Shown: positions 3,913-59,822 of the stretch, one piece after another
Numbering within the stretch: position 1 is the first letter of the stretch
How the letters are laid out: each line of letters starts with the position of its first letter
NCBI GenBank assembly: GCA_021784815.1
Contig: JAJYHK010000019.1
Location: 48,726 to 112,725, forward strand
Reading direction: 5' to 3'
Length of the DNA stretch: 64,000 nt
DNA from: a bacterium
GTDB taxonomy: Bacteria; Patescibacteriota; Minisyncoccia; Phycocordibacterales; Phycocordibacteraceae
The notes under the pieces: generated by a model
What the model saw: the letters and a program-made list of their open reading frames with translations, nothing else
The model's database searches: none
Told to the model about the DNA's origin: nothing
Position numbers and translations under genes: made by a program

Positions 3913-5619
3913 ATGGCGGGGGATCCGGTACAGGAAATCAAAGAGCGGCTTAGTATTCAGGAGATAGCGGCTCCCTACGTGAAGCTCCATAAGGCCGGGC
4001 GATCGATGGTGGGGCTGTGTCCTTTTCACAAGGAGAAGACGCCGAGCTTTCATATTTCGGTGGAGCGCAATACGTATCACTGTTTCGGCTGCGGGGAGGG
4101 AGGCGACATGTTCGCCTTCATACAAAAAGCAGAAGGACTGGAGTTTAAAGAAGCCTTGAAGCTGCTTGCCGAAAAGGCCGGCGTGCAGCTTACGTATGCG
4201 AGCGGCGCGCGGGAACGGCAGTCGCACACCGAGCGCATCCGAGAGGCGCTCGCGCGCGCGCAGCAGTGGTATGCCGCACAGCTGCCGGGGAGCGCCGCGG
4301 AAGCCTATGCGAAGAAACGCGGTCTCTCGGACGTAGTCCTAAGGGAGTGGGGTCTGGGATTCGCACCCGACGCATGGCGCGCGCTGCTCGAGACGCTTGC
4401 GGCTGAGGGGTTTTCGGCTGCGGAGCTCGTTGCGGCAGGACTCGTGAAGGAGGCCGATGGCAAACCAGGCGTGTACTATGATCGGTTCCGCGGCCGGTTG
4501 CTCTTCCCGATCCGAGACGCTAACGGGCACATCGCTGCTTTTACCGGGCGTATGTTGCCATCGGAGACCCACGCCAAAGAGGATGCCGCGCCGGCAAAAT
4601 ATCTCAACTCGCCGGAAACCGACCTCTATCACAAATCAGAAATCATCTTTGGGCTTGATAGGGCGAAAGATGCGATTCGATTGCGGCGCTTCGCACTCTT
4701 GGTGGAAGGGCAGATGGACGTGCTCATGGCGCATCAAGCCGGCTTCACGAATACGGTTGCACTTTCGGGAACCGCATTCACGCCGAAGCATGTGGCGCTC
4801 TTGAAGCGATACAGCGACAATCTGCTCCTCGTGCTCGACGCCGATTCGGCAGGCATCGCTGCAACGGCCAAGTCTGCGGCGCTTGCGCTCGCGCACGGTA
4901 TGCAGGTTAAGGCGGCACGCTTGCCCGAAGGGAGAGATCCAGCCGACCTCCTTCTTGAGGATGTAAGCGAATTTACGGCGCGTATCAAGGAAGCGAAGCC
5001 GGTAGTCGAGTTTTTTCTCGCCGTGCTCGCGGCGCGCGAGCGCGATGCGCATCGTCTCCTCGCACTCGCCGAGCGCATCGTGCTTCCGCTCATTGCGGCA
5101 ATACCGAGCCCGATGGAGCGCGATCTCTTTATGCAGTCGACCGCGCGCGCTTTGAGCCTTTCGACCGAGAGCGTTCGTGAATCACTATCGCGCCTTCCGG
5201 CCCAGGCGGTTCCCGAAGAACTGCATGTTCTTGTTCGTCCGAGCGCTGTCGAGGAGCGAACCGCCCGCGAAGCACGAGAAAAGGCGCTCCTTGCGGTTCT
5301 CCACGCATATGGCGGAACCCCTCTTGCCGAGCGCGTTAAAAGGGAGTATCTTCGGATTACCGAGGCCTCCGCGCTGCCTGCAGGCGTACCAGACGAGTCG
5401 GCTCTTTTCGGAATCGAGCGGCTGTTTGGCGATACGTCTGCCGAGGATGCTGCGGACGAGCTTCTTCGCGCCTTTGAAGAAGCGGTTATCCGCGAGGCGT
5501 ATCAGCGGGCGGTTATGCGTCTGCGAACGGCTGAGTCCGTCGGTGACGCAGATGCCATTACTAAGGCGCAAGCGTTGTGCGTGGAACTCGCCGCACGACG
5601 CGCTGCGCTCAACAAGTAG
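3913..5619 (+). CDS. dnaG: DNA primase
   Basis: CHC2 zinc finger ([14 protein letters not shown]...[11 protein letters not shown]), TOPRIM region ([17 protein letters not shown]). 568 aa. Confidence 0.92.
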
Positions 5620-5665
5620 CCTAAGCCATCGCATCCTCTCATCATCTTCCCTCCACACCACCATC

Positions 5666-6897
<1,232 letters not shown>

Positions 6898-6901
<4 letters not shown>

Positions 6902-6919
6902 CGTCTCGCAGGACGCTAG
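6898..6919 (+). terminator. short hairpin overlapping rpoD stop
   Basis: ctagcgtc-tcgcag-gacgctag. Confidence 0.35.
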
Positions 6920-6928
6920 ACTTTAGTC

Positions 6929-7480
6929 TTGCAGAGGAATATACTCGTTCACGTTTTCGCTATGTTGAGGCTTTTAGCAACGGTACTAAAAACCGGCTCC
7001 AAAGCGGAGCCGGTTTCAATCGTGGCTGACGAGCACGTGCTCGGCGAGAACCTACGAAAAGCCGTGACCGCGCTGTGCGGCGGGCGGGCGTTGCGTATCC
7101 GCCATGTCGATGCGGGCTCAACCAATGCCGAGGAGTATGAGCTCACTGCGCTTGGAAACGCGTACTATGATGCCGATCGGTTCGGACTCTCGTTCGTCGC
7201 CTCGCCGCGCCATGCCGACATCCTGACCGTTTCCGGACCGGTGACGCGCAGCATGGCGCACGCGCTCGTCGCAGCCTATGAAGCGATGCCCGAGCCGCGC
7301 ATCGTAGTGGCGGTGGGCGACGGTGCCATCACGGGCGGCATCTGGAAAGATTCCTACGCCGTTGTTGGGCCGGTATCGAGCCTACTACCAGTAGACGTGG
7401 AGATTCCCGGCGATCCACCTTCGCCGCGTGTGGTGCTCGAAGGATTGCTCGCCGCCGTGCGCTCGGCGAGCCGCAAGTAA
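6929..7480 (+). CDS. NuoB / HyfI / EchC-like 'small subunit' homolog lacking all four [4Fe-4S]-ligating cysteines
   Basis: Aligns with NuoB and hydrogenase small subunits (DRFG..ASPRHADILTVSG..MPEP..VAVG.GAITGG..VGPV..LPVDVEIPG.PP). The canonical CCxxE, GxCxxxGG and PGCPP read STNAEE, GDGAITGG and PGDPP. Start is TTG at 6929 or ATG at 6962. Confidence 0.8.
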   Translation: MQRNILVHVFAMLRLLATVLKTGSKAEPVSIVADEHVLGENLRKAVTALCGGRALRIRHVDAGSTNAEEYELTALGNAYYDADRFGLSFVASPRHADILTVSGPVTRSMAHALVAAYEAMPEPRIVVAVGDGAITGGIWKDSYAVVGPVSSLLPVDVEIPGDPPSPRVVLEGLLAAVRSASRK

Positions 7481-7490
7481 CCGAGGCTTC

Positions 7491-9476
7491 ATGCTTGCTT
7501 TGCTCTACGGCGGTGCGTTTCTCCTGTCCGGCGCGGCTGCACTCGCGGCTATGGCGCTTGCGCGCAGCGCCCATCAGTCGGCTGTGACGCATGCGCTGCT
7601 TATTCTTTCCGGACTGTTCGGTCTTGCCGCGTCGGTCGGGTACTGTATAGAGCTTGCGCACGGCGTCGTGCGCGTTGTGCCGGTCTACGCTACCGCGCTC
7701 TTCGCCTTCTTCGTTACGCCGCTCTCGGGGTTTTTCCTCGCGCTCGTCTTTCTGGGCGTGACGCTCACCTCTTGGTACGCGCTTGGGTACCTGCCGCGCT
7801 ACCATACTCACTATACGCTCCCGTGGCTCGATTTCGCGACGAGCCTGTTCGTGCTCGGCATGGTTGGTACGCTCATGGCCGGGCAGCCGTTCGCGTTTTT
7901 GATTGCATGGGAGCTCATGTCCGTCGCGGCGTATTTTCTCATCATCGCGGACGGATCTCGGGAGTCGCTCACCGCCGGCTTTCGGTACCTGCTCATGGCG
8001 CAGCTCGGGTTTCTCGCGCTGCTCGTGGGCCTCTTGCTGCTTGCAGGCGGCGACCCGTTCGCTTCCTGGGCCGCAGTGGCGCATGCGGCCGCGGCGCTGC
8101 CGCCGTCGGCGCGCTTGGGCGCGTTCCTTCTCCTGCTTGTCGGCTTCGGATCGAAGGCCGGGCTCGTGCCGCTGCATCAGTGGCTGCCGGCGGCGCATCC
8201 GCAGGCACCGAGCCACAGCTCGGCGTTGCTCTCCGGCGTTATGCTCAAGGTTGCGCTCTACGGGTTCATTCTTTCAGTCGGATTATTGCCGGCTGTGCCG
8301 TTCTCATGGGCGATGCTTGTTATCGTGCTCGGCCTTGCTTCCGCCTTCTTCGGCGTGCTGCATGCAGTCGTCGAGAACGATGCTAAGCGCATGCTTGCCT
8401 GGAGCAGCATCGAACACATGGGACTGCTCTTTACGGGCGTCGGCCTCCTACTCGCTTTGCCGAACCTTCCGGTCGGCGCGGACGCCGCAGCGCTTACTGC
8501 GGCCCTTACCGGCTTCGTCATACTGCACGCCCTTAACCACTCGCTCTTTAAGTCGGGCCTTTTCATGGCAACCGGCGCGGTCGTCGCGCAAACCCACACG
8601 CGCGATCTTGACCGCCTTGGCGGCCTTGCGCAGCGATGGCCGCTTTTCTCGGGCGCATTCCTGGCACTGGCGCTATCAGCGGCGGCGCTGCCGCCGACGG
8701 GCACGTTTTTCGGGGAATGGCTCTTGTTCCAGCCACTCGCGATAGGGTTCCGGAGCGCCGCGCCGGCCTCGTCTCTGGGCGCGGCGCTCGTGCTTGCGGT
8801 TGTGGCGCTTGTGGGCGGGCTTGCGGTGTTTGCGTTCGTTAAGCTCTTCAGCGTCATGTTTCTCGGGCGTCCGCGCAGCAGCGCGGCGGAGCAGGCCGGA
8901 GAAATGCCGCTTTTGCTTACGCTCCCGCCACTCGCTGCTGCGGTGCTTGTTTCTCTTTCAGGCTTGCTGCTCTTTCCGCTGCTTGCGCAACCGGAGCGCG
9001 TGCGCCTGCTGGGATTGCCGTTCGCAAGCGCGGTGCTGCCCGGTGCCGCAATGAGCTCCTGGGGCGTCGTTTTTGCGCTCTTGGGTAGCGCCGCCGCCGC
9101 CGCCGCGTTCTATCGTGCCTTCGCGCGGCGGACAATCAGAATTACCGAGACCTGGGACTGCGGCGCGCCGCTTACCGCGCGTATGCAATACACGGCGACC
9201 GGCTTTTCAGCGCCGATACGGTTCTTCTTCCGGGCGCTTGTGCTGTCGAAAAAGACCTTGGTCGTTGAACCGGTCGTGGTAACGAATCCATGGATAGCGA
9301 AGCGCCGGCTGTCTTGGGCGACCGAATCATTCTGGGAGGCGGGACTATACCGCCCGGTCGGTCGGGCGGCGATCGCCATCTCCGCGTCGGTTCGCCGTCT
9401 CCAGAATGGGGCAGTGCAGTTTTATTTGGCGCTCGTGTTTGCTGCGCTCGTTGGCGTCATTCTGTTCGCGCTATGA
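7491..9476 (+). CDS. HyfB / NuoL / MrpA-like antiporter-type membrane subunit
   Basis: About 660 aa polytopic protein with the complex-I antiporter-like signature (WLPAAHPQAPSHSSALLSGVMLK..SSIEHMGLL). ATG at 7491 chosen over the in-frame extension from 7428 that overlaps the preceding gene. Confidence 0.85.
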   Translation: MLALLYGGAFLLSGAAALAAMALARSAHQSAVTHALLILSGLFGLAASVGYCIELAHGVVRVVPVYATALFAFFVTPLSGFFLALVFLGVTLTSWYALGYLPRYHTHYTLPWLDFATSLFVLGMVGTLMAGQPFAFLIAWELMSVAAYFLIIADGSRESLTAGFRYLLMAQLGFLALLVGLLLLAGGDPFASWAAVAHAAAALPPSARLGAFLLLLVGFGSKAGLVPLHQWLPAAHPQAPSHSSALLSGVMLKVALYGFILSVGLLPAVPFSWAMLVIVLGLASAFFGVLHAVVENDAKRMLAWSSIEHMGLLFTGVGLLLALPNLPVGADAAALTAALTGFVILHALNHSLFKSGLFMATGAVVAQTHTRDLDRLGGLAQRWPLFSGAFLALALSAAALPPTGTFFGEWLLFQPLAIGFRSAAPASSLGAALVLAVVALVGGLAVFAFVKLFSVMFLGRPRSSAAEQAGEMPLLLTLPPLAAAVLVSLSGLLLFPLLAQPERVRLLGLPFASAVLPGAAMSSWGVVFALLGSAAAAAAFYRAFARRTIRITETWDCGAPLTARMQYTATGFSAPIRFFFRALVLSKKTLVVEPVVVTNPWIAKRRLSWATESFWEAGLYRPVGRAAIAISASVRRLQNGAVQFYLALVFAALVGVILFAL

Positions 9477-10414
9477 ACGGCATGCTTTTCATTCTCCAGG
9501 GCGTGGTTACGCTTATGCTTGCGCCGCTCATGGTAGGGCTCGTGCGCTTCTTCAAGGCACGTTTCCAGAACCGCCGCGGCGCGGTGCCCTGGTTGCCGTA
9601 CGTATCGCTCTGGTCGCTCTTTGCGAAGGACATGACGATCACGCGTTATAGCTCATGGGTGTTCCGATTCGTGCCGTTCGTGCTCGCAAGTATCGCTCTC
9701 GTGCTTGCCTTCGTAGTGCCGACCTTCGCGTATGGCGTCGTGCCGCCGTTCCTTTCGAACCTCTTTCTGGTAGGCGGGCTATTCGCGTTTGGGTCCGCTT
9801 GGCTCGTGCTGGGCGGTATGGACACGGCAAGCGCGTTCGGCAACATGGGCGCCAGCCGCGAAATGACGCTTGCGGCGCTCGTCGAGCCGGCGCTCTACGT
9901 AAGCCTAGCGACCATCGCGTTTGCGGCCGGGTCCTGGAGCCTCGACGGTATGCTTGCGCACGAGGCGGGCCTTTCCTGGCATGGCGGGGCATTGCCCTTG
10001 TCGTTTGCGCTCGGCGCGCTTCTGCTCGTTGCGCTTACCGAAAACGCCCGGTATCCGGTCGATAACCCGGCGACGCATCTCGAACTCACCATGGTGCACG
10101 AAGCGATGGTGCTTGAGTACTCGGGGCCGTACTTAGCGTTGCTTGAGTACGCGGCGGCGGTGAAGCTGACCGTGACCATGCTGTTTCTCTTTGCGCTCGC
10201 GCTGCCGTTCGGTCTTATGCATGTAGGCGCCTCGCCGCTCGCCGTTGTATTCTGGTACATCGTTCGCTTCGTCTTCGCATCGTTCATTGTTGCGTTCATT
10301 GAATCGGTGATCGTGAAGATGCGTTTTTATCGGATGCAGGAATACCTCTCGCTTGCGCTGTTCGTGGCGCTGGCGGGCCTGGTGCTTGTGCTTATGCAGC
10401 AGTTCTCGTTCTAG
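9473..10414 (+). CDS. HycD / HyfC / NuoH-like membrane subunit
   Basis: N-terminus MNGMLFILQGVVTLMLAPLMVGLVRFFKARFQNRRGAVP resembles the E. coli HycD N-terminus as recalled (ARLHNRRGP in a hydrophobic context). ATGA overlap with the upstream gene stop. Confidence 0.8.
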   Translation: MNGMLFILQGVVTLMLAPLMVGLVRFFKARFQNRRGAVPWLPYVSLWSLFAKDMTITRYSSWVFRFVPFVLASIALVLAFVVPTFAYGVVPPFLSNLFLVGGLFAFGSAWLVLGGMDTASAFGNMGASREMTLAALVEPALYVSLATIAFAAGSWSLDGMLAHEAGLSWHGGALPLSFALGALLLVALTENARYPVDNPATHLELTMVHEAMVLEYSGPYLALLEYAAAVKLTVTMLFLFALALPFGLMHVGASPLAVVFWYIVRFVFASFIVAFIESVIVKMRFYRMQEYLSLALFVALAGLVLVLMQQFSF

Positions 10415-10417
10415 CGT

Positions 10418-11065
10418 ATGGGTCCGGTATTCCTCAGCGGCGCGTGTCTTGTTGGGGCGGTGCTCGCAGCGTTCCTTATGGCGAGCCGCATGCGCCTTGC
10501 ATCGCTTGCATCGCTCTATGCGATACAGGCCATGCTGCTCTCAGCCGCAGTCGCGTTCTATGCGGTTGCGCATGGCGACGCGTCGGCGTATGCGGTCGCC
10601 GGCCTCACGTTCGTGCTCAAAGCGCTCCTCATTCCGTACTGGTTCGTGCGCATCGTGCGCGCGCACGGCTCAAGTGAGCGGCTCGTGGCGTATGCTCGTC
10701 CGACGACGCTCTCGTTTGGCGCGCTTTTCTCCGTTTCGTTTGCCGGACTGATCGCGCAGGAATTGGCGCGCGCGTCGAGCGCGCCGTACGTAGCGCTCGC
10801 TTCTTCGATCGCGCTCATCTTGATCGGCTTCCTTATGCTCGTTTCGCGGCGCGACATGATCGGCCTAGGCTTCGGCTTTTTGGTCGTGGAGGCTGGCGTC
10901 TTTGCGCTCGGGCTCGCGCTCACGGGCGGCATGCCGCTGTTCGTGGAGCTCGGCGCGCTCTTCGACCTCTCAATCTTCTTCGTGCTTCTGGTGGCATTCG
11001 CACGGCGGGCGCAACGGGAGCACGCGTCGCTCGCGACGGATTATTTGCGTGAACTCATCGGCTGA
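10418..11065 (+). CDS. HyfE-like small polytopic membrane subunit
   Basis: 215 aa. Colinear similarity to E. coli HyfE (216 aa): YAIQAMLLS, VLKALLIPYWF, GLGFGFLVVEAGVFALGLAL. Confidence 0.7.
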   Translation: MGPVFLSGACLVGAVLAAFLMASRMRLASLASLYAIQAMLLSAAVAFYAVAHGDASAYAVAGLTFVLKALLIPYWFVRIVRAHGSSERLVAYARPTTLSFGALFSVSFAGLIAQELARASSAPYVALASSIALILIGFLMLVSRRDMIGLGFGFLVVEAGVFALGLALTGGMPLFVELGALFDLSIFFVLLVAFARRAQREHASLATDYLRELIG

Positions 11066-11068
11066 CCT

Positions 11069-12538
11069 ATGACGGCAACCCTTCTCGTGTGTGCGTCGTT
11101 CGTTTCTGCGTTTTTACCGCTCCGTACGCGGTCAGTGCGCGCTGCGGTGCTCATGAGCCTTGCGGGGAGTACGATTGTGCTCGCCCTCGGACTCGCCCTT
11201 GCGGTGCCGGCACTAGTCGCGTCCGCCTCGGTCGCCTCCGGCTTGTGGTATCTCGACCCGCTTTCGGGGCTGTTGGTCCTCCTTATCGTTTTCGTCGGAT
11301 GGACCGCGGCGATGGCGAGCGTCTCGTACCTGTCGGCCGAAGCGCGCGAGAGCGTCGTGAGCGCGCAGCAGGTACGGCACTACGGGGCGCTCTCCGCGCT
11401 TTTCGTATGCTCGATGCTCGTAGTCGTGCTCGCAAACAATCTCGGTCTCATGTGGGTAGCGCTCGAGGCCACGACGCTTACCACGGCGCTCCTCGTCGCG
11501 TTTTACGCGCGTCCCGGCTCGCTTGAGGCGGCTTGGAAGTACCTCATCCTGTGCTCGACCGGCATCGTGCTGGGGCTTATGGGCGTGATGCTCGTGTATG
11601 CGGCGGCCACGTCCGCGATCGGCGAAAGTGGTTTCGCGGTGTTGAGCTATGCAGCGCTCCTGCACAGTGCAGCCCTTCCGCCCGCGCTCATGCGGCTTGC
11701 GTTCGCGTTCGTGCTCGTCGGGTTCGGCACGAAGGTGGGGCTCGTCCCGATGCATGCGTGGCTGCCGGACGCGCACTCAAGCGCGCCGTCGCCGGTTTCC
11801 GGCATGCTCTCCGGCATCCTGCTCACGACGGCGCTGTTTGCGGTGATGCGCTACAAGACGCTCGTCGACCATGCGCTCGGGAGCGCAGGATACACCGAGA
11901 CGCTTCTGCTCGTCTTTGGCGCATTGACGACCCTCGTCTCCGCGCTCTTTATCCTCGTGCAGCTCGACTACAAGCGACTCTTGGCGTACTCGAGCATCGA
12001 GCACATGGGGCTGACGACCTTCGCGCTCGGCCTGGGCGCTCCGGGCGCGGTGGTTGCAGTCATACACCTCGTCGGCCACGCGCTCGCGAAGCCGCTACTC
12101 TTCTATGGGGCGGGGAACGTGCTTGTGCGCTTCAAGAGCACCAAGTTCGATCGAGTGTGGGGCGTGGCGCGCGTATTGCCTTACACTGCCGGGCTCTTTG
12201 TCTTCGGTTTGCTCGCGCTTCTCGCCGTGCCGCCCTCGCCGCTCTTTGTAAGCGAGCTCCTCCTTGCGGCGCAAGCGGTAGCCGCGCACGCATACCTGTT
12301 TGCCGTCATCGCGGTTGCGCTCGTGCTCGTGTTTGCGGGGTTTGCGCGGGCGTTCTTCCCGTTCCTCTTCAGCCGGGATGAGGCGCCTATCCAGGCGCAC
12401 GAGCTCACGAACGAACGCTGGAACAGCGCGCACACCGCGATGACACTGCATGCGGTGGTGCTGACGGGGTTCGGCGTAGCGCTGTTTGCCGGCTATGCGC
12501 TGCCGTTTATCATGCATATCGCCGCGGCGCTTGCGTAG
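11069..12538 (+). CDS. HyfF / NuoN / NuoM-like antiporter-type membrane subunit
   Basis: 489 aa. WLPDAHSSAPSPVSGMLSGILL and SSIEHMGL motifs of the PF00361 family. Confidence 0.85.
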   Translation: MTATLLVCASFVSAFLPLRTRSVRAAVLMSLAGSTIVLALGLALAVPALVASASVASGLWYLDPLSGLLVLLIVFVGWTAAMASVSYLSAEARESVVSAQQVRHYGALSALFVCSMLVVVLANNLGLMWVALEATTLTTALLVAFYARPGSLEAAWKYLILCSTGIVLGLMGVMLVYAAATSAIGESGFAVLSYAALLHSAALPPALMRLAFAFVLVGFGTKVGLVPMHAWLPDAHSSAPSPVSGMLSGILLTTALFAVMRYKTLVDHALGSAGYTETLLLVFGALTTLVSALFILVQLDYKRLLAYSSIEHMGLTTFALGLGAPGAVVAVIHLVGHALAKPLLFYGAGNVLVRFKSTKFDRVWGVARVLPYTAGLFVFGLLALLAVPPSPLFVSELLLAAQAVAAHAYLFAVIAVALVLVFAGFARAFFPFLFSRDEAPIQAHELTNERWNSAHTAMTLHAVVLTGFGVALFAGYALPFIMHIAAALA

Positions 12539-12542
12539 GCTT

Positions 12543-14081
12543 ATGAACATCGACCAGCTTTGTTCTGAACTGGGGCTTGTGCGCGCCGAGAGCGGAATCG
12601 TCGAGGTGCTGCGCGAGGAACTGGCGCGACAGGCGGAGGCGCTCGTGGTCAAAGAAGCGCCGCTTGTGTTTATGTATGCGACCGATGAGCGCGCGCGGGG
12701 CTCGGGGTTTGCGGTGCATGCCGTCTTCTCGGTCGCCGGAGACGGGTTCCTTACGCTGCGCGCAGCGCTCCCGGCCGATGCGCCCGCATACCCGGCGCTC
12801 ACGCGCTCTATCATGGCCGCCCACTGGTACGAGCGGCTCATGGGAGACCAGTTTGGCATCCTTGCTGAAGGGCATCCGGACTGGCGCCGCCTCATGCATC
12901 ACGAGAACATTCCGGCGGGAACGCATCCTTTGCGTAAAGACTTTGCCTGGAACACCAGGCTGCCGCATGCGCAGGAGCCGCACCTCATGCATCAGGTCGA
13001 AGGACAGGGCGTGTACGAGATTCCGGTGGGGCCCATTCATGCAGGTATCATTGAACCGGGGCATTTCCGATTTAATGTGCGTGGCGAGCGCATTCTGACG
13101 CTCGAGGGCAAACTGTTCTTTACGCACAAGGGCGTCGAGAAGCTCGTGGAGGGGAAGACGCCGGAGGCGGCGCTGCCGTTTGTCGAACGCATCTCGGGCG
13201 ACATGGCGGTAGGGCATACGCTCGCGTATGCGCAAGCGGTCGAGCGTGCCGTCGGCTGCGCGGTCAGCCCGCGCACGCGGTGGTTGCGCGTGGTCTGGAA
13301 CGAGCTTGAGCGGTTCACCGCGCATATCTTTGACATCGGCAACATGGCGGGGAACGGTACCGGTTTTACCTTCATGGCCGCGCAAGGCTTCCGAATGCTC
13401 GAAGAGCTGCGCCGTCTGCACGAAGCGCTCGTCGGACACCGCTATCTGCGCGGCGCGATCACGCTCGGCGGCGCGCATGATCTCGATGCACTGGCGCAGC
13501 AGCAGCTAAGCGCGCAGCTTAGGAAGACGGAGCGCGAGCTCGAAACGATTCTCGATGTCGCTTTCCGGAGCGACGGGCTCATGGAGCGCTTCGAGACGAC
13601 CGGCGTCCTCTCGCCCGACGCCGCGCGCGCATACGGCGCGCGCGGCGTCGGCGCGCGCGGGTCCGGCATAGCGACCGATTTGCGCAGCGAGCATCCGTAC
13701 GCCGCATATGCCGAGCTGCCGTTCTTGGTGGTGATGGAGGCGGCCGGCGACGTCGCGGCGCGTTTCAGGGTGCGCGCGCGCGAAGCGGCGCAGGCTCTCG
13801 CACTCATACGCGCGGCGCTCGACTCGCTGCCCGAGGGCTCGGCGCAGGTCGCGCTCGTTCCTAAGCAAGGCAGCGCGCTTGGTTGGGCCGAAAGCTTTCG
13901 CGGCGCGGTGATCGACTTCGTGCAGCTCGACGAGCGCGGTACGATCGATCGGCTCGCGGTTTCCGACCCGTCGTTCATGAACTGGCCGCTTTTCGGCGAG
14001 CTCGGCCCGGGCAACATCGTGCCGGACTTTCCGCTCTGTAATAAAAGCCTCAATCTCTCCTATTCGGGTACGGATTTATAA
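12543..14081 (+). CDS. Fused NuoC-NuoD / hydrogenase large-subunit-like protein (HyfG/HycE-like) lacking NiFe-binding cysteines
   Basis: N-terminal NuoC-like domain, then a NuoD/large-subunit core (GPIHAGIIEPGHFRF..ERISGDMAVGH..). The L1 motif RxCGxCxxxH reads RISGDMAVGH. The C-terminal DPCxxCxxH/R reads NLSYSGTDL. ATG at 12543 lies 5 nt after the upstream stop. Confidence 0.8.
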   Translation: MNIDQLCSELGLVRAESGIVEVLREELARQAEALVVKEAPLVFMYATDERARGSGFAVHAVFSVAGDGFLTLRAALPADAPAYPALTRSIMAAHWYERLMGDQFGILAEGHPDWRRLMHHENIPAGTHPLRKDFAWNTRLPHAQEPHLMHQVEGQGVYEIPVGPIHAGIIEPGHFRFNVRGERILTLEGKLFFTHKGVEKLVEGKTPEAALPFVERISGDMAVGHTLAYAQAVERAVGCAVSPRTRWLRVVWNELERFTAHIFDIGNMAGNGTGFTFMAAQGFRMLEELRRLHEALVGHRYLRGAITLGGAHDLDALAQQQLSAQLRKTERELETILDVAFRSDGLMERFETTGVLSPDAARAYGARGVGARGSGIATDLRSEHPYAAYAELPFLVVMEAAGDVAARFRVRAREAAQALALIRAALDSLPEGSAQVALVPKQGSALGWAESFRGAVIDFVQLDERGTIDRLAVSDPSFMNWPLFGELGPGNIVPDFPLCNKSLNLSYSGTDL

Positions 14082-14107: not shown

Positions 14108-14132
14108 GACCCGCCAGTTTTGCTGGCGGGTC
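14108..14132. terminator. bidirectional hairpin between convergent genes
   Basis: gacccgccag-ttttg-ctggcgggtc, located between 14081 (+ gene end) and 14154 (- gene end). Confidence 0.5.
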
Positions 14133-14153: not shown

Positions 14154-14771
14154 TCATGCAACTGCGTAAAGTTGCCGTTGCCGTTGCGTCGGAATGTCGG
14201 CCTTCAGGAAGGCGATCATTTCTTTCTTCTCATCCTCCGGTGTTGTTGCCTCGAGATGATGGATTCGTTGCGTCCCATCGGCGCAATACGCTGCATCGGC
14301 CGCAACAAGATACGAATCAATAGGTCTCCGCGCAATGTATGCAGTCGGCGGAACCCCTCCTTGCTCAAAGATACGACTCTGCACCAGGCCCGTATGGAAG
14401 CCGAGGGTTTGCGGGCAGGCACCAAACCGGATTGCGAAGTGGTAGGCCTCGCGTCCATACTCGTGGATGAACACGGCCCGATACTCCCCGCTCCTGAGCG
14501 CGGGGATGATTTTGCGCTCGGTCATTTCGTTCATGCGAACCCAGCGCAGAAGCAATCGAGAGGTGGGAAGCAGTGCCGCCATATCCTCATGGTCCCACGG
14601 CACGTCGCATCCAAAGGTGCTGCCGAGAAACGCAAAAGCCTGGTCCGGGAGAAACGTGCCTCCACGGTGCAGGGCTTCGAGTTCCTTGTACAGCCCGAGG
14701 TCTGAAATAACATATAAAAGAGCAGGTGTCGGTGATTGCACGAGTCTCTCCCTCGTTGGTGAAAGCCACAT
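14154..14771 (-). CDS. hypothetical protein (205 aa), unrecognised family
   Basis: Clean ORF convergent with the hyf-like operon. No motif I can name with confidence. Confidence 0.45.
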   Translation of the reverse strand: MWLSPTRERLVQSPTPALLYVISDLGLYKELEALHRGGTFLPDQAFAFLGSTFGCDVPWDHEDMAALLPTSRLLLRWVRMNEMTERKIIPALRSGEYRAVFIHEYGREAYHFAIRFGACPQTLGFHTGLVQSRIFEQGGVPPTAYIARRPIDSYLVAADAAYCADGTQRIHHLEATTPEDEKKEMIAFLKADIPTQRQRQLYAVA

Positions 14772-33824: not shown

Positions 33825-35507
33825 TCAGACGTTCTGAATCATGTCGCGCTTGATGTCGTCGAAGGAGCCGCCGACCTTCTTCCCCGGGTTCAAGATGTTT
33901 TCGGGATCGAAGAGTTCCTTCACCTGCGCGAAGAGCGCGACGATCTCCGGCCCGAAGAGCATAGGGAGATAGGGCGTGCGGATGATGCCGTCGTTGTGCT
34001 CGCCGGTGGTCGTACCGCCTTCGCTTATGACGAGGCGGTACACTTTCGGCGCAAGCTCGAGAATGACGTCCCTATTTTCTTTCTTCGAGAGATCCATGAG
34101 CGGGATGATGTGGAAATTGCCGTTGCCGATGTGCCCGGCAATCGTATAGATGAAGTGGCTTTTGTACTGATCGAGGAGCGCGTTCAATTTCGGCAGAAAT
34201 TCCGGATATGTCTCCGGCGGCACGACGAAGTCGTCGATAAAGGGCGACGCGTACATGCCGTGCAGATTCTTGCGCAGAAGCGAGAAGCTTTCGCGGCGCA
34301 CGATCCAGTATTTCTCGCTCTCTTTTTCGTTTTTTTCTATTTTCGCTTGCACGTCAAGGCCGTTGAGCGCGTCGCGCGCTGCGAAGGCCTTGCGATCCGC
34401 TTCTTCGATGGACGCCTCGGCAAACTCGGCCATGAGGATGAGTTTAGGCACGCCGCCGGTCGCGACCATGGCCGCCTCGGGAATGAAGTCGATGCCGAGC
34501 CGAGCCGCTTTGGCGAAGCCCATCTGCCTGAGCATTTGCGGCAGGAGCTTCACCGCGAGCGTGAAAGTGTGATCGTCGTAGCTCTCGAAGGACTCGGGAT
34601 GCTGCGGCAGGACGCGCTTCACGATTTCCGGGAGGAGCGCGATGTCGGAGAGGAAGATGACGAGCATCGCGCGGTGTTCCTTGGGAGTGACGAGCGCGAG
34701 CCGCGCGCGCGTCCAGAGCGCGAGCGTGCCCTGACTGCCGCAGATGAGCTTCGCGAGGTTCAGGCCGCCCGTACGCTCATCGCGCACGTTCCAGAGCGCG
34801 TACCCGGCGCTGTTTTTGCTCACCTTCGGCTTATGCGCGGCGATGAGCCTCGCGTTTTTTGCGAGAAGCTCGTCCATGCCGCGGTAGAGCGCGCCCTCGA
34901 GCGTCTTGAGCCTTTTTTTCTCTTCGACCTCTTCGGGGGAGAAGAGTTTAAAGGTTGTCGTGCTGCCGTCGCTAAGCACGACGTCCATCTCCTCGATGTA
35001 CTTCTCGGTCTTGCCGTACTCGAGCGTGCGCTCCCCGCCCGAATTGTTCGCGACGATGCCGCCCATGGCGCAAAGCTCGCGACTCGCGGGGTAGGAGGGG
35101 AGGATAAGGTTTTTGGCGAGGGTTTCCTTTTCGAAATCGCGATAGAAGACACCCGGCTCGGTCTCGGCATAGCCGTCGGCGATCGGGTCGTTGCCTGACT
35201 CCACCGTGAGCACGCGGTTCAGGTGTTCGGTAAAGGAGATGACGACGCCGGTCGTAAGGGGCCCGCCGCTCATGTCGGTACCGGCCGCGCGGGCCGCGAC
35301 GCACACGTCTGCGCCCGCCTTCTTCGCGTCATGCACCGTCTGTACGATCGCCGCGACATCCGCGGCGTCCGCGGGGCAGGCGACGAGCTCGGGCATCCGC
35401 ATGAAGAGCGACGTGTCGCGGCTCATTTTCTTGAGCGTGTCCGCATCATCCTTCACTTCGCCCGTAATCACGCGCACAATTTCTTTTTTAAGATCGAATT
35501 CCTCCAT
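33825..35507 (-). CDS. FAD-linked oxidase (GlcD / D-lactate dehydrogenase family)
   Basis: FAD-binding PCMH domain (GGPLTTGVVISFTEHLNRVL) and C-terminal FAD-oxidase domain. Start taken as MEEFDLKK (35507) by hand; it could instead be further upstream (35537 or 35660). Confidence 0.75.
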   Translation of the reverse strand: MEEFDLKKEIVRVITGEVKDDADTLKKMSRDTSLFMRMPELVACPADAADVAAIVQTVHDAKKAGADVCVAARAAGTDMSGGPLTTGVVISFTEHLNRVLTVESGNDPIADGYAETEPGVFYRDFEKETLAKNLILPSYPASRELCAMGGIVANNSGGERTLEYGKTEKYIEEMDVVLSDGSTTTFKLFSPEEVEEKKRLKTLEGALYRGMDELLAKNARLIAAHKPKVSKNSAGYALWNVRDERTGGLNLAKLICGSQGTLALWTRARLALVTPKEHRAMLVIFLSDIALLPEIVKRVLPQHPESFESYDDHTFTLAVKLLPQMLRQMGFAKAARLGIDFIPEAAMVATGGVPKLILMAEFAEASIEEADRKAFAARDALNGLDVQAKIEKNEKESEKYWIVRRESFSLLRKNLHGMYASPFIDDFVVPPETYPEFLPKLNALLDQYKSHFIYTIAGHIGNGNFHIIPLMDLSKKENRDVILELAPKVYRLVISEGGTTTGEHNDGIIRTPYLPMLFGPEIVALFAQVKELFDPENILNPGKKVGGSFDDIKRDMIQNV

Positions 35508-35716
35508 GGAGGCAGTATAGAACGCACACTGCACCATTTTTGCGGGCGATGGTACAATCTGTGTATGCCAGGGGAGGTTGGGAATCGCAAAAAGGTTCTC
35601 GCAAATGCCAGTATTGAGCCGGGTGGCGGGACTTTGAGTAACGGCCGTACATTGGTACACTATGCCAGTATTTTGGGCTGCCTAAAGCTAGCTCCGGTAC
35701 ACAGGTAACAATCGAC

Positions 35717-44432: not shown

Positions 44433-46400
44433 TTACGCGCCCTGGAGATCACCGTCGGGCACTCCGCGTAGCGCCGCATGTTTTTCGAGGTAGTCGAGCA
44501 CGGCATTTACGTATGCCGCATGGCTCCAGGTCAGGGGAGCAACCGAGCACTGCATGAGGTCTTCGGCGTAGAGCTGCTCGGAAAGGGTGCCGGAGTACTG
44601 GGCGTGCTGTACGACCCACTCGAACAGGTTGCGGACCGGCGCGAGCTCGTCGAGCGTTTTGGCGCGTGCAGTGAGATACTGCGCGTACCAGAGCGTCGTC
44701 ACGTACCAGGGATTGCTCGCAAGACCGCGGCGGTAGTAGGGATCGCCGTCGTAGCGGGCGATGCCGCCGCCGCGAGAGAGACGCGAGACGGTTTCTTCAA
44801 ACGCTTTGGACAGCTGCGGGTCATCCGGTTCAAGTACACCGAACGCAAAGAGTCCGTACACGGACGAGATGTCGACGGTGCGGTCGTAAACGGTCTTCTG
44901 CTCGAAGGTCTCTATGAGCTTGACCCAGCCGACCGGATCTTCGGTCACGAGGTGCTTTTGGATAGCAGCCTTGATTTCGTGCGCGGCGCGGTCGTATCGA
45001 AGCGCGTCGTGTTCTTTGCCGAGCACGCGCGCAATCTCTGCCGCGGCGCGGAGCGCGCCATGCACGGCAGCGGAGGTGAAGGTGCTGATGCCGTGTTTTT
45101 CCTCCCAGAGATCGTAAGAGGCATGCGGGAGTCCGGTCTCGTCGCGGTATCGGCAGAGGAAGTCGGCCATACTTGCGACGAGCGGATTGTAGAACTGCTC
45201 GATGAATTCGAGATCGCGATTGCGACGGTAGTGCTGCGCGATACTCCAAAGCACGAGCGCGGTCTCGTCTTCCTGGATCGGTAGCTGCACCTCGCCGTCG
45301 CGGATCCAGGGGTGCCAGGAAGATCCGAGCGATTGATCCGGGAGGTGCTTGTGGAGCAGGTAGCCGCCCTCGGTGAGTACGTCCTTGCAGAACGTGAAAT
45401 AGCGTTCAGCGACCGCGATATCGCCGACGCGCGCGAGCGCAAGCGCGCCATAGCTCGCATCGCGCGGCCATACATAGGCATAGGTGTCCTTTCCATACTC
45501 AAGCGTCTCGCCGTCGGCTGAGGCGAGAATACCGCCTCCGTTATCAGCGTGGGCGCGCACGAACATGAGCGACTTCTTGAAGAGCGCGATTGCGTCAGGA
45601 GAGAGGTCCTGGAAATGCCACTCGTAGCGGTTGGTCCAGGCGCGCCAGTAGTCGCGGGTGCTCTCGACGAGGTGTTGTGGCGTCTTGTGGTGCACGTACG
45701 CGTTCAGCTCAAGCGCGTCCTTGATAGACGTGGCAGCGGTGAGCCAGTAGTGCAGGGTCTTCGGTTTTTCGGATGCGAGGCTGAGCGTGAAGCCGATGAT
45801 GGAGTCGACCGAGCCGTGCTCAATCGCGTTTTTCGATAGGGTGCCGTCTTCGGCGTCGCGAAAAGTGCCGTCCTTGCCGTCAACGCCGAAGAGTCCGACG
45901 GCGTAGTCGGAAAAAGGAGCGCCGTCAGCGCTGCCGTTTGCAAGCAGCACCCGCTGGCCCTTGTAGTGGAGGATTGCGTGCGACTGCGGATCAAAGTAGG
46001 CGGTGTCGCTCCCGTATGACCGGCTCAGTTCGAACTCCTGGCCAAAGAAGAGCTTCACCGTGCGCGCTCGGTCGGCGTGGTTGACGAGTGTAACGGCGCG
46101 AACAAAGATGGGGCGCTCATTATAGACGACGTCAGTAAACGAGATCGAGAGCGCGAGCGTGTCGTTGCGTGCTTCGATGGTGCTCTGGAGCGCGTCCTCG
46201 ACGCACTCGACCCGGATCTGCCAATGGGGATCTTCGGAAAGCCACGAGATCGCATTGTCGACGTAGACTCCGATCCGATGGCGGAGCGCCCCGCCAGCAT
46301 GATTCTCGAGCCCCACATGCGGAAAGTACACGTCACGTACCTCGCCGCGGCAGTCAAGGGTGACGAGGAGGGAGCCGTTGCTGAGGACAAGCGACCTCAT
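44433..46400 (-). CDS. glycoside hydrolase family 15-like (glucoamylase/glucodextranase-related)
   Basis: 655 aa with GH15-type N-terminal beta-sandwich and (alpha/alpha)6 catalytic domain features. Confidence 0.65.
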   Translation of the reverse strand: MRSLVLSNGSLLVTLDCRGEVRDVYFPHVGLENHAGGALRHRIGVYVDNAISWLSEDPHWQIRVECVEDALQSTIEARNDTLALSISFTDVVYNERPIFVRAVTLVNHADRARTVKLFFGQEFELSRSYGSDTAYFDPQSHAILHYKGQRVLLANGSADGAPFSDYAVGLFGVDGKDGTFRDAEDGTLSKNAIEHGSVDSIIGFTLSLASEKPKTLHYWLTAATSIKDALELNAYVHHKTPQHLVESTRDYWRAWTNRYEWHFQDLSPDAIALFKKSLMFVRAHADNGGGILASADGETLEYGKDTYAYVWPRDASYGALALARVGDIAVAERYFTFCKDVLTEGGYLLHKHLPDQSLGSSWHPWIRDGEVQLPIQEDETALVLWSIAQHYRRNRDLEFIEQFYNPLVASMADFLCRYRDETGLPHASYDLWEEKHGISTFTSAAVHGALRAAAEIARVLGKEHDALRYDRAAHEIKAAIQKHLVTEDPVGWVKLIETFEQKTVYDRTVDISSVYGLFAFGVLEPDDPQLSKAFEETVSRLSRGGGIARYDGDPYYRRGLASNPWYVTTLWYAQYLTARAKTLDELAPVRNLFEWVVQHAQYSGTLSEQLYAEDLMQCSVAPLTWSHAAYVNAVLDYLEKHAALRGVPDGDLQGA

Positions 46401-47626
46401 ACGAGCGCCGGTTCGCCCGCACGCACCCGCGCGCGTTCATGTTGGCGGAGGCGCCACTCGAGGTCTTTGAGCGCATGCATGAACGTGTTGTGCGCTTCGT
46501 AGGGCGTACCGTAGGGCGAGAAGTAGGCATGTACATCGCCGTCGGCAGCCCATTTTGTGCACATGTAGTAGAAGTGGTCTGAGGTCTGCAGCCGCCGCCA
46601 GTCTTCGAGGAGCTGCTCGTCGTTGGTTGCCTGGACGCGGTCCTCGAGGCCGTAGAGCGTACCGATAGCCGCGTGCTGGAGCTCGTTGCCCAGCCAGGCG
46701 GTGAGGTCCCGGTCGGTGTCGGCCCAGGTGGTGACGCCCGGCACGTCGACCGTGTCGCGGTCTTGGTGCATAGCGATGACGAGCGACGGCGTCATAAAGG
46801 CGAGGCTCGGATTCTGGAGGAGTTCACCCGGGAGCGCTTCGAGGAAATGGAAGATGCCGGTGTCTTCCCACTGATGTTCGCCGAAGGTCTCATAGTCCAT
46901 AAAGAGGTTCACAGTGTCGCCGCCCTCGGCGCCCATCCACTGGCCGTATTTGCCCGTGGTGAGCGGCCAGCCCTCCCACTCACGCGACGAAAAACGGAAG
47001 GCGATATCGTCAGAAAGCCGGTAATTCTTAAGGAGAAGCTTTGTGCGGCGAGAGCCGGGCGGGCGGTACACATAATTGGGACTGCGTCCGTGGAGAATCG
47101 GATCCCAGCCTTCGGCGAGGATGCCGAGGTAGCCGCGCTCGTCAGCCCAGGAGCCGAGCGCGTTCGTGTAGGAAAGCTCGGTATTGCGAAAGACGCGCGG
47201 CGTCACGCCGAAAAGGCGCTCGACGAGTTCGGTATGCTTGCGCACTTGCCGCTCGAATTCCTGGCGCGAGAAGAAGAATGCGAGCGAGTGGTAGTACGTT
47301 TCGCCCAAAATCTCGAGGCGGCCGGTCCGAACCATGTCTTGGAAAAGCGTGATCGCCTCAGGCGCATCTTGCTCGAGCTGCTCAAGCGCGATGCCGGAGA
47401 AAGAGACAGCAAACCGGAAGGCTTGATGCCGTTTGAGCAGTTTCGCAAGGAGCCGCGCGGTAGGGAGGTACGACTTCTCGGCGACCTTGCGCAGCACGCG
47501 GCGGTTATTGAGATCGTTTTCTTCGTTGCCGTCGAAATACGCATGATCGCGGCCAATGTCAAACAAGCCGTAGCGTTTTACACGATACGGCTGGTGAATT
47601 TGCAGGTAGAGGCAAACGCTTTTCAT
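46397..47626 (-). CDS. glycoside hydrolase family 57
   Basis: MKSVCLYLQIHQPYR... GH57 N-terminal signature. Confidence 0.75.
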   Translation of the reverse strand: MKSVCLYLQIHQPYRVKRYGLFDIGRDHAYFDGNEENDLNNRRVLRKVAEKSYLPTARLLAKLLKRHQAFRFAVSFSGIALEQLEQDAPEAITLFQDMVRTGRLEILGETYYHSLAFFFSRQEFERQVRKHTELVERLFGVTPRVFRNTELSYTNALGSWADERGYLGILAEGWDPILHGRSPNYVYRPPGSRRTKLLLKNYRLSDDIAFRFSSREWEGWPLTTGKYGQWMGAEGGDTVNLFMDYETFGEHQWEDTGIFHFLEALPGELLQNPSLAFMTPSLVIAMHQDRDTVDVPGVTTWADTDRDLTAWLGNELQHAAIGTLYGLEDRVQATNDEQLLEDWRRLQTSDHFYYMCTKWAADGDVHAYFSPYGTPYEAHNTFMHALKDLEWRLRQHERARVRAGEPALV

Positions 47627-47638
47627 AGCCTGGGTTTC

Positions 47639-48988
47639 TTACGCCGGGACAAGTTCGTCCATGATGCCGCGGATCTTTTCTCCCGCGCGATCCCAGGTGA
47701 GCAGGGAGAGCACAGCAGCGTGTTTTGCGATCTGGGCGGCACGCAGCTGCGGCGAGACTAGCAGCTCATGAATACGGGCGGCCATAGCCTGATCGTCCCA
47801 GAAATCAACGATAGTCGCGTGGGGAACCGCCTCCGCAACACCGGATTGTCTAGAGATGATGACAGGGGTCCCAGCGCGCATGGCCTCAAGCGGCGCGATG
47901 CCGAAGGGTTCAGAAATGCTCGGCATCACGAAGACGTCCGCTGTCGCGTATGCTTCGTGGAGGTCATGGTCGCGCAGGAATCCAGGAAAGAGCACGCGAT
48001 CGCCAATGCCGAGCCCGGCGGCCATGCGCATGAGCTGGTGCGTCATATCACCCGAACCAACGATGACGAAAAGCACATCCGGATCACGCTTTGCTACACG
48101 CACGGCAGCGCGCAGGAAGTGGTCGGGCCCTTTCTGGATAGTGAGACGGCCGGCAAAAAGCACGATCTTGTATCCGGCTTGCTTGAGCGCCGCGAGACGC
48201 GCCGCGGCGTGCGGATTCCGCCGCGGCGCGGTTTCGTCGTCGATGCCGTTCCAGACAACGCGCACCCTACTCGGGTTCACGCCATAGCGGTCGATCACCA
48301 TGCCCTTGGTGCGATGGGAGACGGCAACGACGCAGTCGGCATTATGCATGCCGGCGCGCTCGATATCGTAGACCACCTGGTTCACGCTGCCGTTCCCCGT
48401 GCGGTCGAATTCGGTCGCGTGTACGTGCGCCACGAGCGGCTTGTACGATGCGCTTTTGGCGGCGCTGCCGGCCCCGAAAGAGAGCCAGTCATGCGCGTAG
48501 ATGATATCGTGCGGCTCGCGCTCGGCGATTTTTGCGCCCGCTGCAGCATAGCGACGCACTTCGCTCACAAGGTCGCCGCCATAGATGGGTTTGCCGTCGG
48601 GGCCGAGTATATAGCTGCCCTCAATAGCGTACGGCACGATGGGCGAATCGATGTAGCGTACTTGCGCGCCGATATCTTCGTACTCGGCGGTAATCATTTT
48701 CGCGTAGGGGACGGATAGCGGAAAGCGTTTGGGGAGGACGAACGTAACGTCGACGTCACTTTTGGCGAGCGCGCGGGTAAGGCCGAGGGACGCGACGCCG
48801 AGGCCGCCGCTGTTAAAGGGCGGGAACTCCCAGCCGAAAATGAGCGCACGCAGCTTGCGGCGCGCACGCGCGAACGGACGCTGATCGAGGGATGCTGGTT
48901 GCTTTGCAAAAACAGCGCCGAGTGTCGCACCGACCACAAAGAAGGAGAAGAGCAACGCAATGAGATATATGAAAAAAGCGAAGCTCAT
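47639..48988 (-). CDS. alpha-glucosyltransferase (glycogen-synthase-like, GT4/GT5)
   Basis: FPPFNSGGLGVASLGL resembles the KTGGL donor-binding motif. GT-B C-terminal domain. Confidence 0.65.
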   Translation of the reverse strand: MSFAFFIYLIALLFSFFVVGATLGAVFAKQPASLDQRPFARARRKLRALIFGWEFPPFNSGGLGVASLGLTRALAKSDVDVTFVLPKRFPLSVPYAKMITAEYEDIGAQVRYIDSPIVPYAIEGSYILGPDGKPIYGGDLVSEVRRYAAAGAKIAEREPHDIIYAHDWLSFGAGSAAKSASYKPLVAHVHATEFDRTGNGSVNQVVYDIERAGMHNADCVVAVSHRTKGMVIDRYGVNPSRVRVVWNGIDDETAPRRNPHAAARLAALKQAGYKIVLFAGRLTIQKGPDHFLRAAVRVAKRDPDVLFVIVGSGDMTHQLMRMAAGLGIGDRVLFPGFLRDHDLHEAYATADVFVMPSISEPFGIAPLEAMRAGTPVIISRQSGVAEAVPHATIVDFWDDQAMAARIHELLVSPQLRAAQIAKHAAVLSLLTWDRAGEKIRGIMDELVPA

Positions 48989-54150: not shown

Positions 54151-54152
54151 AC

Positions 54153-55096: not shown

Positions 55097-55099
55097 AGG

Positions 55100-57052: not shown

Positions 57053-57055
57053 ACG

Positions 57056-59167: not shown

Positions 59168-59240
59168 GGGCCCTTAGCTCATCTGGTAGAGCGCATCCAT
59201 GGCATGGATGAGGTGAGGAGTTCGAGTCTCCTAGGGTCCA
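59168..59240 (+). tRNA. tRNA-Ala (anticodon GGC)
   Basis: Cloverleaf folded by hand: acceptor GGGCCCU/AGGGUCC with G3:U70, anticodon loop AUGGCAU, T-loop UUCGAGU, discriminator A. CCA not encoded. Confidence 0.85.
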
Positions 59241-59245
59241 CTCTA

Positions 59246-59821: not shown

Positions 59822-59822
59822 G

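Follow-up and report, generated by a model that had tools for sequence, protein, structure and literature searches.

A six-gene hydrogenase/complex-I-like membrane complex of a patescibacterium, with a small subunit that lacks the [4Fe-4S] ligands

The operon and its six proteins

The window analyzed here is a 64,000-nt stretch from a bacterium of the Patescibacteriota, which belong to the Candidate Phyla Radiation (CPR); it is taken from assembly GCA_021784815.1, contig JAJYHK010000019.1, positions 48,726–112,725. Six genes on its forward strand (6962–14081) form an operon in the order S-L-H-E-N-D, small-subunit gene first. The first gene (6962–7480, forward strand; 172 aa) encodes the NuoB/HycG/MbhJ-type small subunit in a hydrogenase/complex-I-like membrane complex made of six proteins. 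Matches in Pfam and the Protein Data Bank (PDB) identify it as a protein of this type, and the residue-level alignments show that it has no [4Fe-4S] ligands. An earlier, sequence-only reading of the window had proposed a NuoB-type small subunit that lacks the cluster cysteines, and on this central point it was right.

The open reading frame (ORF) at 6929–7480 is present on the forward strand, and its translation contains DRFG, ASPRHADILTVSG, MPEP, LPVDVEIPGDPP, GDGAITGG and PGDPP. It matched the Pfam profile PF01058 (Oxidored_q6) at 84.7 bits, against a cut-off of 27. Among solved structures its best relatives were MbhJ (6cfw_J, 2.4e-29), from the membrane-bound hydrogenase of P. furiosus, and HycG (7z0s_G, 1.4e-26), from E. 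coli formate hydrogenlyase; the NuoB/PSST and NdhK chains of complex I ranked after these two among the PDB matches. An AlphaFold2 (AF2) model built on an alignment of 72 homologues had a mean predicted local distance difference test score (pLDDT) of 81, and Foldseek aligned it to MbhJ 6cfw_J with a template modeling (TM) score of 0.81 and a root mean square deviation of 3.2 Å over 137 columns. Values of pLDDT below 50 occurred solely in the loop 67–76, which bears E68, E69 and E71; small-subunit residue numbers here and below run from the ORF start at 6929. The protein shows both the flavodoxin-like fold and the Pfam gathering score that mark the PF01058 family, and the suggestion that the NuoB fold is conserved is borne out by the model.

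The start of the small subunit is almost certainly ATG 6962, not TTG 6929. The first Met aligned with ATG 6962 in 107 of the 120 homologues described below, and the identical database protein, P0001, has 172 aa. A promoter-like site (TAGACT-17-TATACT; 6917–6945, forward strand), a match to consensus only, occurs in the stretch from the rpoD stop to the small-subunit start; it overlaps TTG 6929, which favors ATG 6962 as the start. The region held 2 such consensus sites, where shuffled sequence would be expected to give 1.7. A stem-loop (6898–6919) is found upstream of the promoter-like site.

The four genes that follow, all on the forward strand, encode membrane subunits. The HyfB/NuoL-like antiporter-type subunit (7491–9476; 661 aa; PF00361, 2.8e-48) has GAGG 5 nt upstream of its ATG; its top NCBIfam name was hydrogenase 4 subunit B, under the cut-off, and E141, K222, K253 and K354 were invariant. 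The start of the HyfC/NuoH/HycD-like subunit (9473–10414; 313 aa; PF00146, 9.3e-27) overlaps the preceding stop (ATGA), and eight of its carboxylates were invariant: E130, E138, E190, D197, E204, E210, E215 and E225. The HyfE-like subunit (10418–11065; 215 aa) had no Pfam match and reached the NCBIfam hydrogenase 4 membrane subunit at 1.6e-13, under the cut-off, with E158 and E177 invariant. The HyfF/NuoN-like antiporter-type subunit (11069–12538; 489 aa; PF00361, 4.5e-47) matched NCBIfam hydrogenase 4 subunit F at 1.6e-114, again under the cut-off, and had invariant E133, K222 and K341. The conserved ion residues of the antiporter-like subunits are the Glu of transmembrane helix 5 (TM5) and the Lys of TM7, TM8 and TM12.

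The last gene (12543–14081, forward strand) encodes a fused NuoC-NuoD/HycE-like large subunit of 512 aa with PF00329 and PF00346 domains, matching HycE (7z0s_E) at 3.4e-66. In the HycE alignment all four NiFe cysteines are replaced, by Ser, Met, Ser and Gly in turn: the motifs read ERISGDMAVGH and NLSYSGTDL where HycE has DRVCGICGFAH and DPCYSCTD. These NiFe-less motifs were repeated in 16 CPR loci. EPGHF, a hydrogenase-type proton-pathway motif, is kept, and the beta1-beta2 loop motif aligns with the form found in HycE, a hydrogenase. Between the two former N-terminal NiFe cysteines lies D220 (13200–13202, motif SGDM), invariant in the CPR loci and in two further loci introduced below, L082 and L083; the column holds Ala, Val or Ile in Cys-bearing relatives. 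We also considered H150, R290 and R420 of the large subunit as compensating basic residues in Cys-less lineages; they are not used as evidence.

A GC-rich palindromic hairpin with a 10-bp stem (14108–14132), just 3′ of the large-subunit stop, probably marks the operon end. Within the operon, Pfam found no NuoI/HycF-type 2x[4Fe-4S] subunit, no NuoE, NuoF or NuoG, and no flavin or NAD domain.

At least 15 species-level CPR loci, labeled Kaiserbacteria, Paceibacterota or Parcubacteria, had the order S-L-H-E-N-D with their ORFs intact; some of these labels are evidently wrong. Across the loci the flanks consist of housekeeping genes, and no conserved accessory or redox partner gene was found beside the operon. 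Immediately 3′ of rpoD is where it stands in seven loci (the window, 5177–6961, and L003, L004, L006, L007, L012 and L015), and another subclade has infC/rplT/smpB-like genes nearby; such a position among core genes suggests that the operon is expressed constitutively. Just downstream of the operon in the window is a 205-aa ORF on the reverse strand (14154–14771), which had no Pfam match and is not conserved beside the operon elsewhere.

The former iron-sulfur ligands and their replacements

The register of the ligands was set by HMMER and MAFFT alignments of the small subunit to MbhJ, HycG, NdhK and the nearest Cys-bearing relatives, which come from genomes of Solirubrobacterales, Dormibacterota, Nitrobacter and sphingomonads and share 50–60% identity with it. 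These relatives read HVDAGSCNACEHE / LGDCALGCG / PGCPP, where the window protein reads HVDAGSTNAEEYE / VGDGAITGG / PGDPP. All four cluster cysteines are absent: Cys1 is now T65 (codon 7121–7123), Cys2 is E68 (7130–7132), Cys3 is G132 (7322–7324) and Cys4 is D162 (7412–7414), all on the forward strand. At ligands 1 and 2 the Cys-bearing relatives have HVDAGS-C-N-A/G-C-E-x-E and the window protein HVDAGS-T65-N-A-E68-E-Y-E; at ligand 3 LG-D-C-A is matched by VG-D131-G132-A, and at ligand 4 PG-C-PP by PG-D162-PP. The window protein therefore has neither the CxxC (or CC) motif nor the GxC and PGCPP motifs that define a small subunit with the N2/proximal [4Fe-4S] cluster.

This register changes part of what had been read from the window alone. 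Of the two Asp residues previously placed at former Cys positions, D162 is a true replacement (PGCPP to PGDPP); D131 (7319–7321, forward strand) is an inherited neighbor, the residue preceding Cys3, which appears as GAC in MbhJ and NdhK and as GDC in the nearest Cys-bearing relatives, and the actual Cys3 position is G132. The description of the CC pair as Ser-Thr was mistaken: ligands 1 and 2 fit the CxxC motif of group 4 (GSCNGCE) rather than complex I's CC pair, so the replaced pair is T65 and E68, and S64 is the ancestral Ser preceding Cys1.

Conservation was measured over the 120 closest cluster representatives of the small subunit, at 61–100% identity. E68, D131 and D162 were each present in 120/120 and G132 in 118/120, and position 65 was Thr in 103, Asn in nine and Ser in seven, confirming that the substitutions are not random. 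Among the 72 aligned small subunits there were 50 invariant columns, with the ex-ligand positions among them.

Cysteines of any kind were scarce in this set. Total Cys per homologue was 0 in 45 of the 120, one in 59, two in 13 and three in three, and the only conserved column with Cys was a facultative one after G132 (64/120). This Cys lies two residues past the former Cys3 (GDGACTGG), and Ala or Val stands there in other homologues; the window protein has Ile (I134, codon 7328–7330). The sole Cys of the window protein, C50, is in a column that is not conserved and that is Tyr in the family. Over all six proteins of the CPR loci, only four isolated alignment columns had Cys in at least half of the loci.

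Selection was estimated as the ratio of nonsynonymous to synonymous substitution rates (dN/dS), by the method of Nei and Gojobori (NG86) on multiple alignments. For the small-subunit gene dN/dS was 0.078 between the window and locus L001 and 0.04–0.11 in other informative pairs; the unsaturated pair L008/L017 (dS ∼0.2) gave 0.09. Values across all six operon genes were 0.02–0.12. Strong purifying selection acts on each of the six genes, and the low ratios, including that of the unsaturated pair, exclude decay of the small subunit. The purifying selection anticipated by the sequence-only reading is thus real, and it fits a non-redox function.

For a wider view we surveyed 150 representatives of 50%-identity clusters. 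Some 110 of these (∼110/150) keep all four Cys and 29 have lost three or four. Signatures at the ex-Cys positions of Cys-poor proteins include S/E/G/D, N/E/G/D, D/A/A/D (Chloroflexota), S/A/E/S (Dehalococcoidia), E/C/E/D, D/V/D/D and D/E/D/S. Asp or Glu occupied 49% of ex-Cys positions in the 29 Cys-poor representatives, against a background of 10.6%; with one representative per crude lineage the count was 10/36 (p = 0.003).

In quartet bootstraps the S/A/E/S lineage grouped with a Cys-bearing neighbor in 97–99% of replicates, which indicates that the Dehalococcoidia-type Cys loss is independent of the CPR loss. Quartets of CPR proteins, the Chloroflexota D/A/A/D proteins and the Cys-bearing protein P0124 were split about 50/50 on separate losses, and we claim independent loss for the Dehalococcoidia type only.

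Four loci outside the CPR set illustrate different combinations of losses. Chloroflexota locus L082 (SHYO01000004.1, 10001–17536) has the same six-gene order, a D/A/A/D small subunit (with PGDPP again) and a NiFe-less large subunit, so that the cofactor-free form extends beyond CPR bacteria. Loci L083 (7356–14666) and L084 (6883–14193) also have the order S-L-H-E-N-D and a NiFe-less large subunit (ERISGDTTIGH; NQSYSGNDL), together with a small subunit that keeps its four Cys (GSCNGCE, GDCARDCG, PGCPP), leaving an isolated [4Fe-4S] site without a ferredoxin-like subunit. We consider L083 and L084 a likely evolutionary intermediate, and they are consistent with loss of the NiFe ligands before the Fe-S ligands in this operon family. 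A reverse combination was seen in L085 (ENA k141_5873008, 210–2353; Dehalococcoidia-like), where an S/A/E/S small subunit without the four Fe-S cysteines stands alongside a large subunit in which both CxxC motifs for NiFe are present (GACGVCSVTH; ELCYACTDR); it is a putative hydrogenase large subunit that lacks a proximal cluster.

What the complex may do

Every recognizable redox-cofactor site has been lost from the window complex, and no Cys-based site remains. A small subunit that lacks the four Fe-S ligands, and the absence of a ferredoxin-like subunit from the operon, argue against an electron wire. The complex probably moves ions without redox chemistry, judging by the conserved residues of its membrane subunits. 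In full, our favored reading is that the gene encodes the small subunit of a Hyf/Ehr-type complex (Ehr, 'energy-converting hydrogenase-related') of CPR/Patescibacteria (Kaiserbacteria/Paceibacterota-like), and that this complex is a cofactor-free, non-redox ion translocator in which carboxylates replace the cluster; we give this an even chance of being correct.

Under this reading electron transfer would have been abandoned, leaving a machine for Mrp-like cation/proton exchange or for gradient-coupled conformational change, with the peripheral NuoB/NuoCD module kept as an essential structural and coupling part. A cluster of the form [Fe4S4(SCys)4] has a net charge of -2 or -3, and the pocket around it is one that stabilizes negative charge. 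The new carboxylates E68 and D162, with the inherited E69, E71 and D131, would occupy the pocket of this former anionic cluster and stand in for its charge and bulk, with water or a cation possibly bound as well; the fold would thereby be preserved, as would the interface to the large subunit and the NuoH-like subunit. Such electrostatic and steric replacement would explain why independent lineages repeatedly show residues that are acidic yet not identical.

Several points weigh against this reading. Conserved residues are all that suggests the ion-translocator role. Filling charge and volume hardly demands that E68 and D162 be absolutely invariant in 120 sequences, and their invariance looks more like that of a specific cation, proton-relay or salt-bridge site. 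The peripheral subunits are as constrained as the membrane subunits, which suggests that they are more than a cap. The low pLDDT in the loop of E68, E69 and E71 leaves the geometry of the modeled acidic cluster unfixed, and the Asp/Glu enrichment was corrected only crudely for shared ancestry, by the 10/36 count given above. A ferredoxin-like or other partner could be encoded outside the 64 kb examined.

Some of these points favor an explanation in which the carboxylate cluster (T65, E68, E69, E71, D131 and D162) is a functional cation/proton site, not filler; we regard this as a genuine possibility, though on balance improbable. The site could load Na+ or H+ or relay it into the cavity toward the NuoH-like E-channel, or it could be a regulatory or structural site for a divalent metal (Mg2+, Ca2+, Mn2+ or Zn2+); in effect an electron wire would have been turned into an ion path. 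E68, D131 and D162 are strictly invariant, beyond merely polar; acidic residues are enriched at ex-Cys positions in several Cys-less lineages; the large subunit has its invariant D220 inside the former NiFe motif SGDM, which may form a further acidic site where the catalytic pocket used to be, and retains EPGHF; and constraint on the peripheral arm equals that on the membrane arm. However, other Cys-less lineages differ at the same positions (D/A/A/D, S/A/E/S, D/E/D/S), which a general electrostatic need fits better than one coordination geometry, and the loop with three of the Glu residues is predicted at low confidence. Conversion of the N2 site into a proton or cation site, as had been proposed from the sequence, is compatible with our data, as is electrostatic or structural replacement of the cluster.

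A broader form of this idea, which we think rather unlikely, is that the peripheral NuoB/NuoCD arm is an active non-redox coupling module, not a relic, in both the CPR complex and its Chloroflexota look-alikes. What was once the electron path (the N2 pocket with E68, E69, E71, D131 and D162, and the NiFe pocket with D220) would have become an acid-lined cation/proton site that gates or drives translocation, or that uses an ion gradient for some other chemical or mechanical task.

Continued redox activity is highly improbable. Asp occasionally ligates Fe-S clusters, and an Asp-ligated cluster was among the earlier suggestions; we know of no [4Fe-4S] site wholly without Cys. The suggestion fails on the 45 of 120 family members that have no Cys at all, on the missing NiFe ligands and on the lack of a ferredoxin-like subunit in the operon. 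The enzyme would have to persist as a complex-I-like dehydrogenase that takes electrons from NADH or ferredoxin and feeds a cupredoxin/NirK or a quinol oxidase, by way of a non-cysteinyl Glu/Asp/Thr metal center or some other partner. Such a role is in keeping with the route from NADH through the complex and cupredoxin to NirK proposed by Danczak et al. 2017 (PMC5581439), and a cyo-type oxidase operon (53173–58033) and an FAD-linked oxidase (33825–35660) give the window an electron-transport context. Yet the only Pfam domains of the large subunit are Complex1_30kDa and Complex1_49kDa, its beta1-beta2 loop has the HycE form, and the operon has neither NuoI/HycF, NuoE/F/G or a flavin/NAD domain within it nor a conserved redox partner on its flanks.

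Decay of a hydrogenase relic, in the small subunit alone or across the whole operon, with neutral leftovers at the ex-ligand positions, might be suspected from the loss of all catalytic ligands, as in a decaying pseudo-enzyme, and from the reductive character of CPR genomes, but it is effectively refuted by the low dN/dS of all six genes (unsaturated pairs included), the intact ORFs and conserved order in at least 15 species-level loci, the 50 invariant columns and the position of the operon among housekeeping genes, beside rpoD in seven loci.

A long-standing question about complex-I-type enzymes is how ion translocation in the membrane arm comes to be driven by what happens in the peripheral arm. 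The cofactor-free complex favored here would offer a minimal test system that is natural, widespread and strongly conserved, with the NuoB/NuoCD/NuoH interface and the antiporter modules present and Fe-S, NiFe and the ferredoxin subunit absent. The peripheral arm may be a purely structural or gating part of a secondary transporter, or it may have a new non-redox energy-coupling function. The correction of annotation is solid. The usual annotations of the operon are 'Ni,Fe-hydrogenase III small subunit', 'hydrogenase' and 'NuoB', and the complex was drawn as an electron-transferring NADH dehydrogenase in PMC5581439; metabolic reconstructions of CPR bacteria should treat it as neither hydrogenase nor respiratory dehydrogenase. 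Equally solid is the recurrent theme of cluster Cys exchanged for carboxylates, a small general lesson on how proteins persist once an anionic metal cluster is gone.

The rest of the window has uniform GC content (∼60%) and housekeeping genes that include rpoC, dnaG, rpoD, hisS and a UvrD/PD-(D/E)XK helicase. The cyo-type heme-copper oxidase operon, on the reverse strand ∼40 kb from the Ehr-like operon, comprises subunit II with COX_ARM (COX2+COX_ARM; 57056–58033), subunit I (COX1; 55100–57052; PF00115, 2.4e-143), subunit III (COX3; 54500–55096) and a UbiA-family prenyltransferase, possibly heme O synthase (53173–54150). The FAD-linked oxidase, also on the reverse strand, is D-lactate/glycolate dehydrogenase-like (PF01565 and PF02913) and is a possible electron donor for the heme-copper oxidase. 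No quinone biosynthesis genes were seen within the window. Quinol oxidases have been reported from Parcubacteria and read as a means of O2 scavenging (PMC5220378); that the oxidase here supplies a proton gradient used by a secondary transporter is speculative. Elsewhere, genes of families GH15, GH57 and GT4 (starch-synthase-like) stand in a row (44433–48988, reverse strand), suggesting a glycogen or alpha-glucan metabolism cluster, and five tRNA genes on both strands occupy 59168–60267 (Ala-GGC, Pro-CGG, Val-CAC, Pro-GGG and Ala-CGC).

Relation to known systems

The closest structural and sequence relatives of every subunit are in Hyf/Hyc (E. coli hydrogenase-4 and formate hydrogenlyase, 7z0s) and the P. 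furiosus membrane-bound hydrogenase (6cfw). These enzymes differ in having the CxxC motifs, the proximal [4Fe-4S] cluster and the 2x[4Fe-4S] subunit (HycF/MbhN), all absent from the window complex. Every window subunit fell under the NCBIfam curated cut-offs for Hyf, Nuo or Mrp families; the top names for the membrane subunits were HyfB, HyfE and HyfF, not Mrp. An active group 4 [NiFe]-hydrogenase (Hyc/Hyf/Mbh/Ech) was rejected, all Cys of RxCGxCxxxH and DPCxxCxxH/R being replaced; the large subunit scored 23.7 bits to PF00374, under its cut-off of 25.8. Respiratory complex I (NDH-1) was rejected too: the operon has six genes against 11–14 subunits and lacks NuoI, NuoA, NuoJ, NuoE–G and the N2 ligands. 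The large subunit scored 179.7 to NCBIfam NuoD (cut-off 360), and the small subunit missed both NuoB cut-offs (NF005012, 112.7 against 116; TIGR01957, 102 against 142.7).

The complex itself is known: it is an Ehr-type complex already reported from CPR bacteria. Jaffe et al. 2020 BMC Biol (PMC7304191) placed CPR large subunits in an Ehr subclade without NiFe ligands, noted the missing cysteines and judged interaction with H2 improbable. Danczak et al. (PMC5581439) described a Kaiserbacteria 'six-subunit Nqo-like/hydrogenase' without Ni sites or maturases, with Hyp maturation genes absent from two near-complete Kaiserbacteria bins; none were found among the ORFs scanned within our window. The window complex shares with these the group-4-related large subunit without NiFe-binding CxxC and the six subunits, four of them membrane proteins, and it co-encodes NuoB-like, NuoH-like and Mrp/Nuo antiporter-like subunits as CPR Ehr operons do. 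Its small-subunit homologues carry the names Kaiserbacteria, Parcubacteria or Patescibacteria. The consulted parts of PMC7304191 and PMC5581439 treat the large subunit only and make no mention of ligand loss from the small subunit, which in the window protein extends to all Fe-S ligands. A CPR sulfur/hydrogen biofilm paper and a Parcunitrobacter paper do not treat the complex, and literature on EhrS, NuoB-like subunits and Cys loss yielded nothing relevant, although a mention in the founding Ehr papers (Marreiros 2013, Coppi 2005) is possible. The T/E/G/D signature and the complete lack of an electron wire seem to be new details, and they contradict the published electron-transfer proposal.

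Ehr complexes outside the CPR, in Geobacter (EhrA-D/L/S, GSU0739-0745) and in Margulisbacteria/Saganbacteria (PMC6349859), likewise have a NiFe-less group-4-like large subunit fused to NuoC, with NuoH-like, HyfB/HyfF-like antiporter and HyfE-like subunits. In the Margulisbacteria complex the NuoB homologue carries a NuoI-like Fe-S domain as a fusion, and a formate dehydrogenase partner was proposed (PMC6349859, Supplementary Note 4). The window small subunit differs in having neither a NuoI-like domain nor Fe-S cysteines, and the gene order differs in being small-subunit-first. With no Cys-bearing NuoB and no NuoI-like domain, the window operon falls outside the electron-transferring non-CPR Ehr complexes.

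Complexes that couple ion gradients to work other than redox chemistry offer another comparison. In cyanobacterial NDH-1MS/CupA and in DabAB, which carry out CO2 hydration, antiporter-like subunits couple an ion gradient to non-redox chemistry at a soluble module; we know of no homology of CupA or DabA to the window peripheral subunits. Membership in the Mrp (CPA3) family was rejected, the MrpA–G set being incomplete, with only the two PF00361 subunits and the NuoK/HyfE-like subunit resembling Mrp parts. Mrp has MrpB, MrpE, MrpF and MrpG and no NuoB/NuoCD/NuoH-like module, whereas the window complex keeps a conserved peripheral arm. In both, two antiporter-type subunits of PF00361 keep the conserved Glu of TM5 and Lys of TM7, TM8 and TM12, and neither has a redox cofactor; by this analogy Mrp may be the closest guide to how the window complex works.

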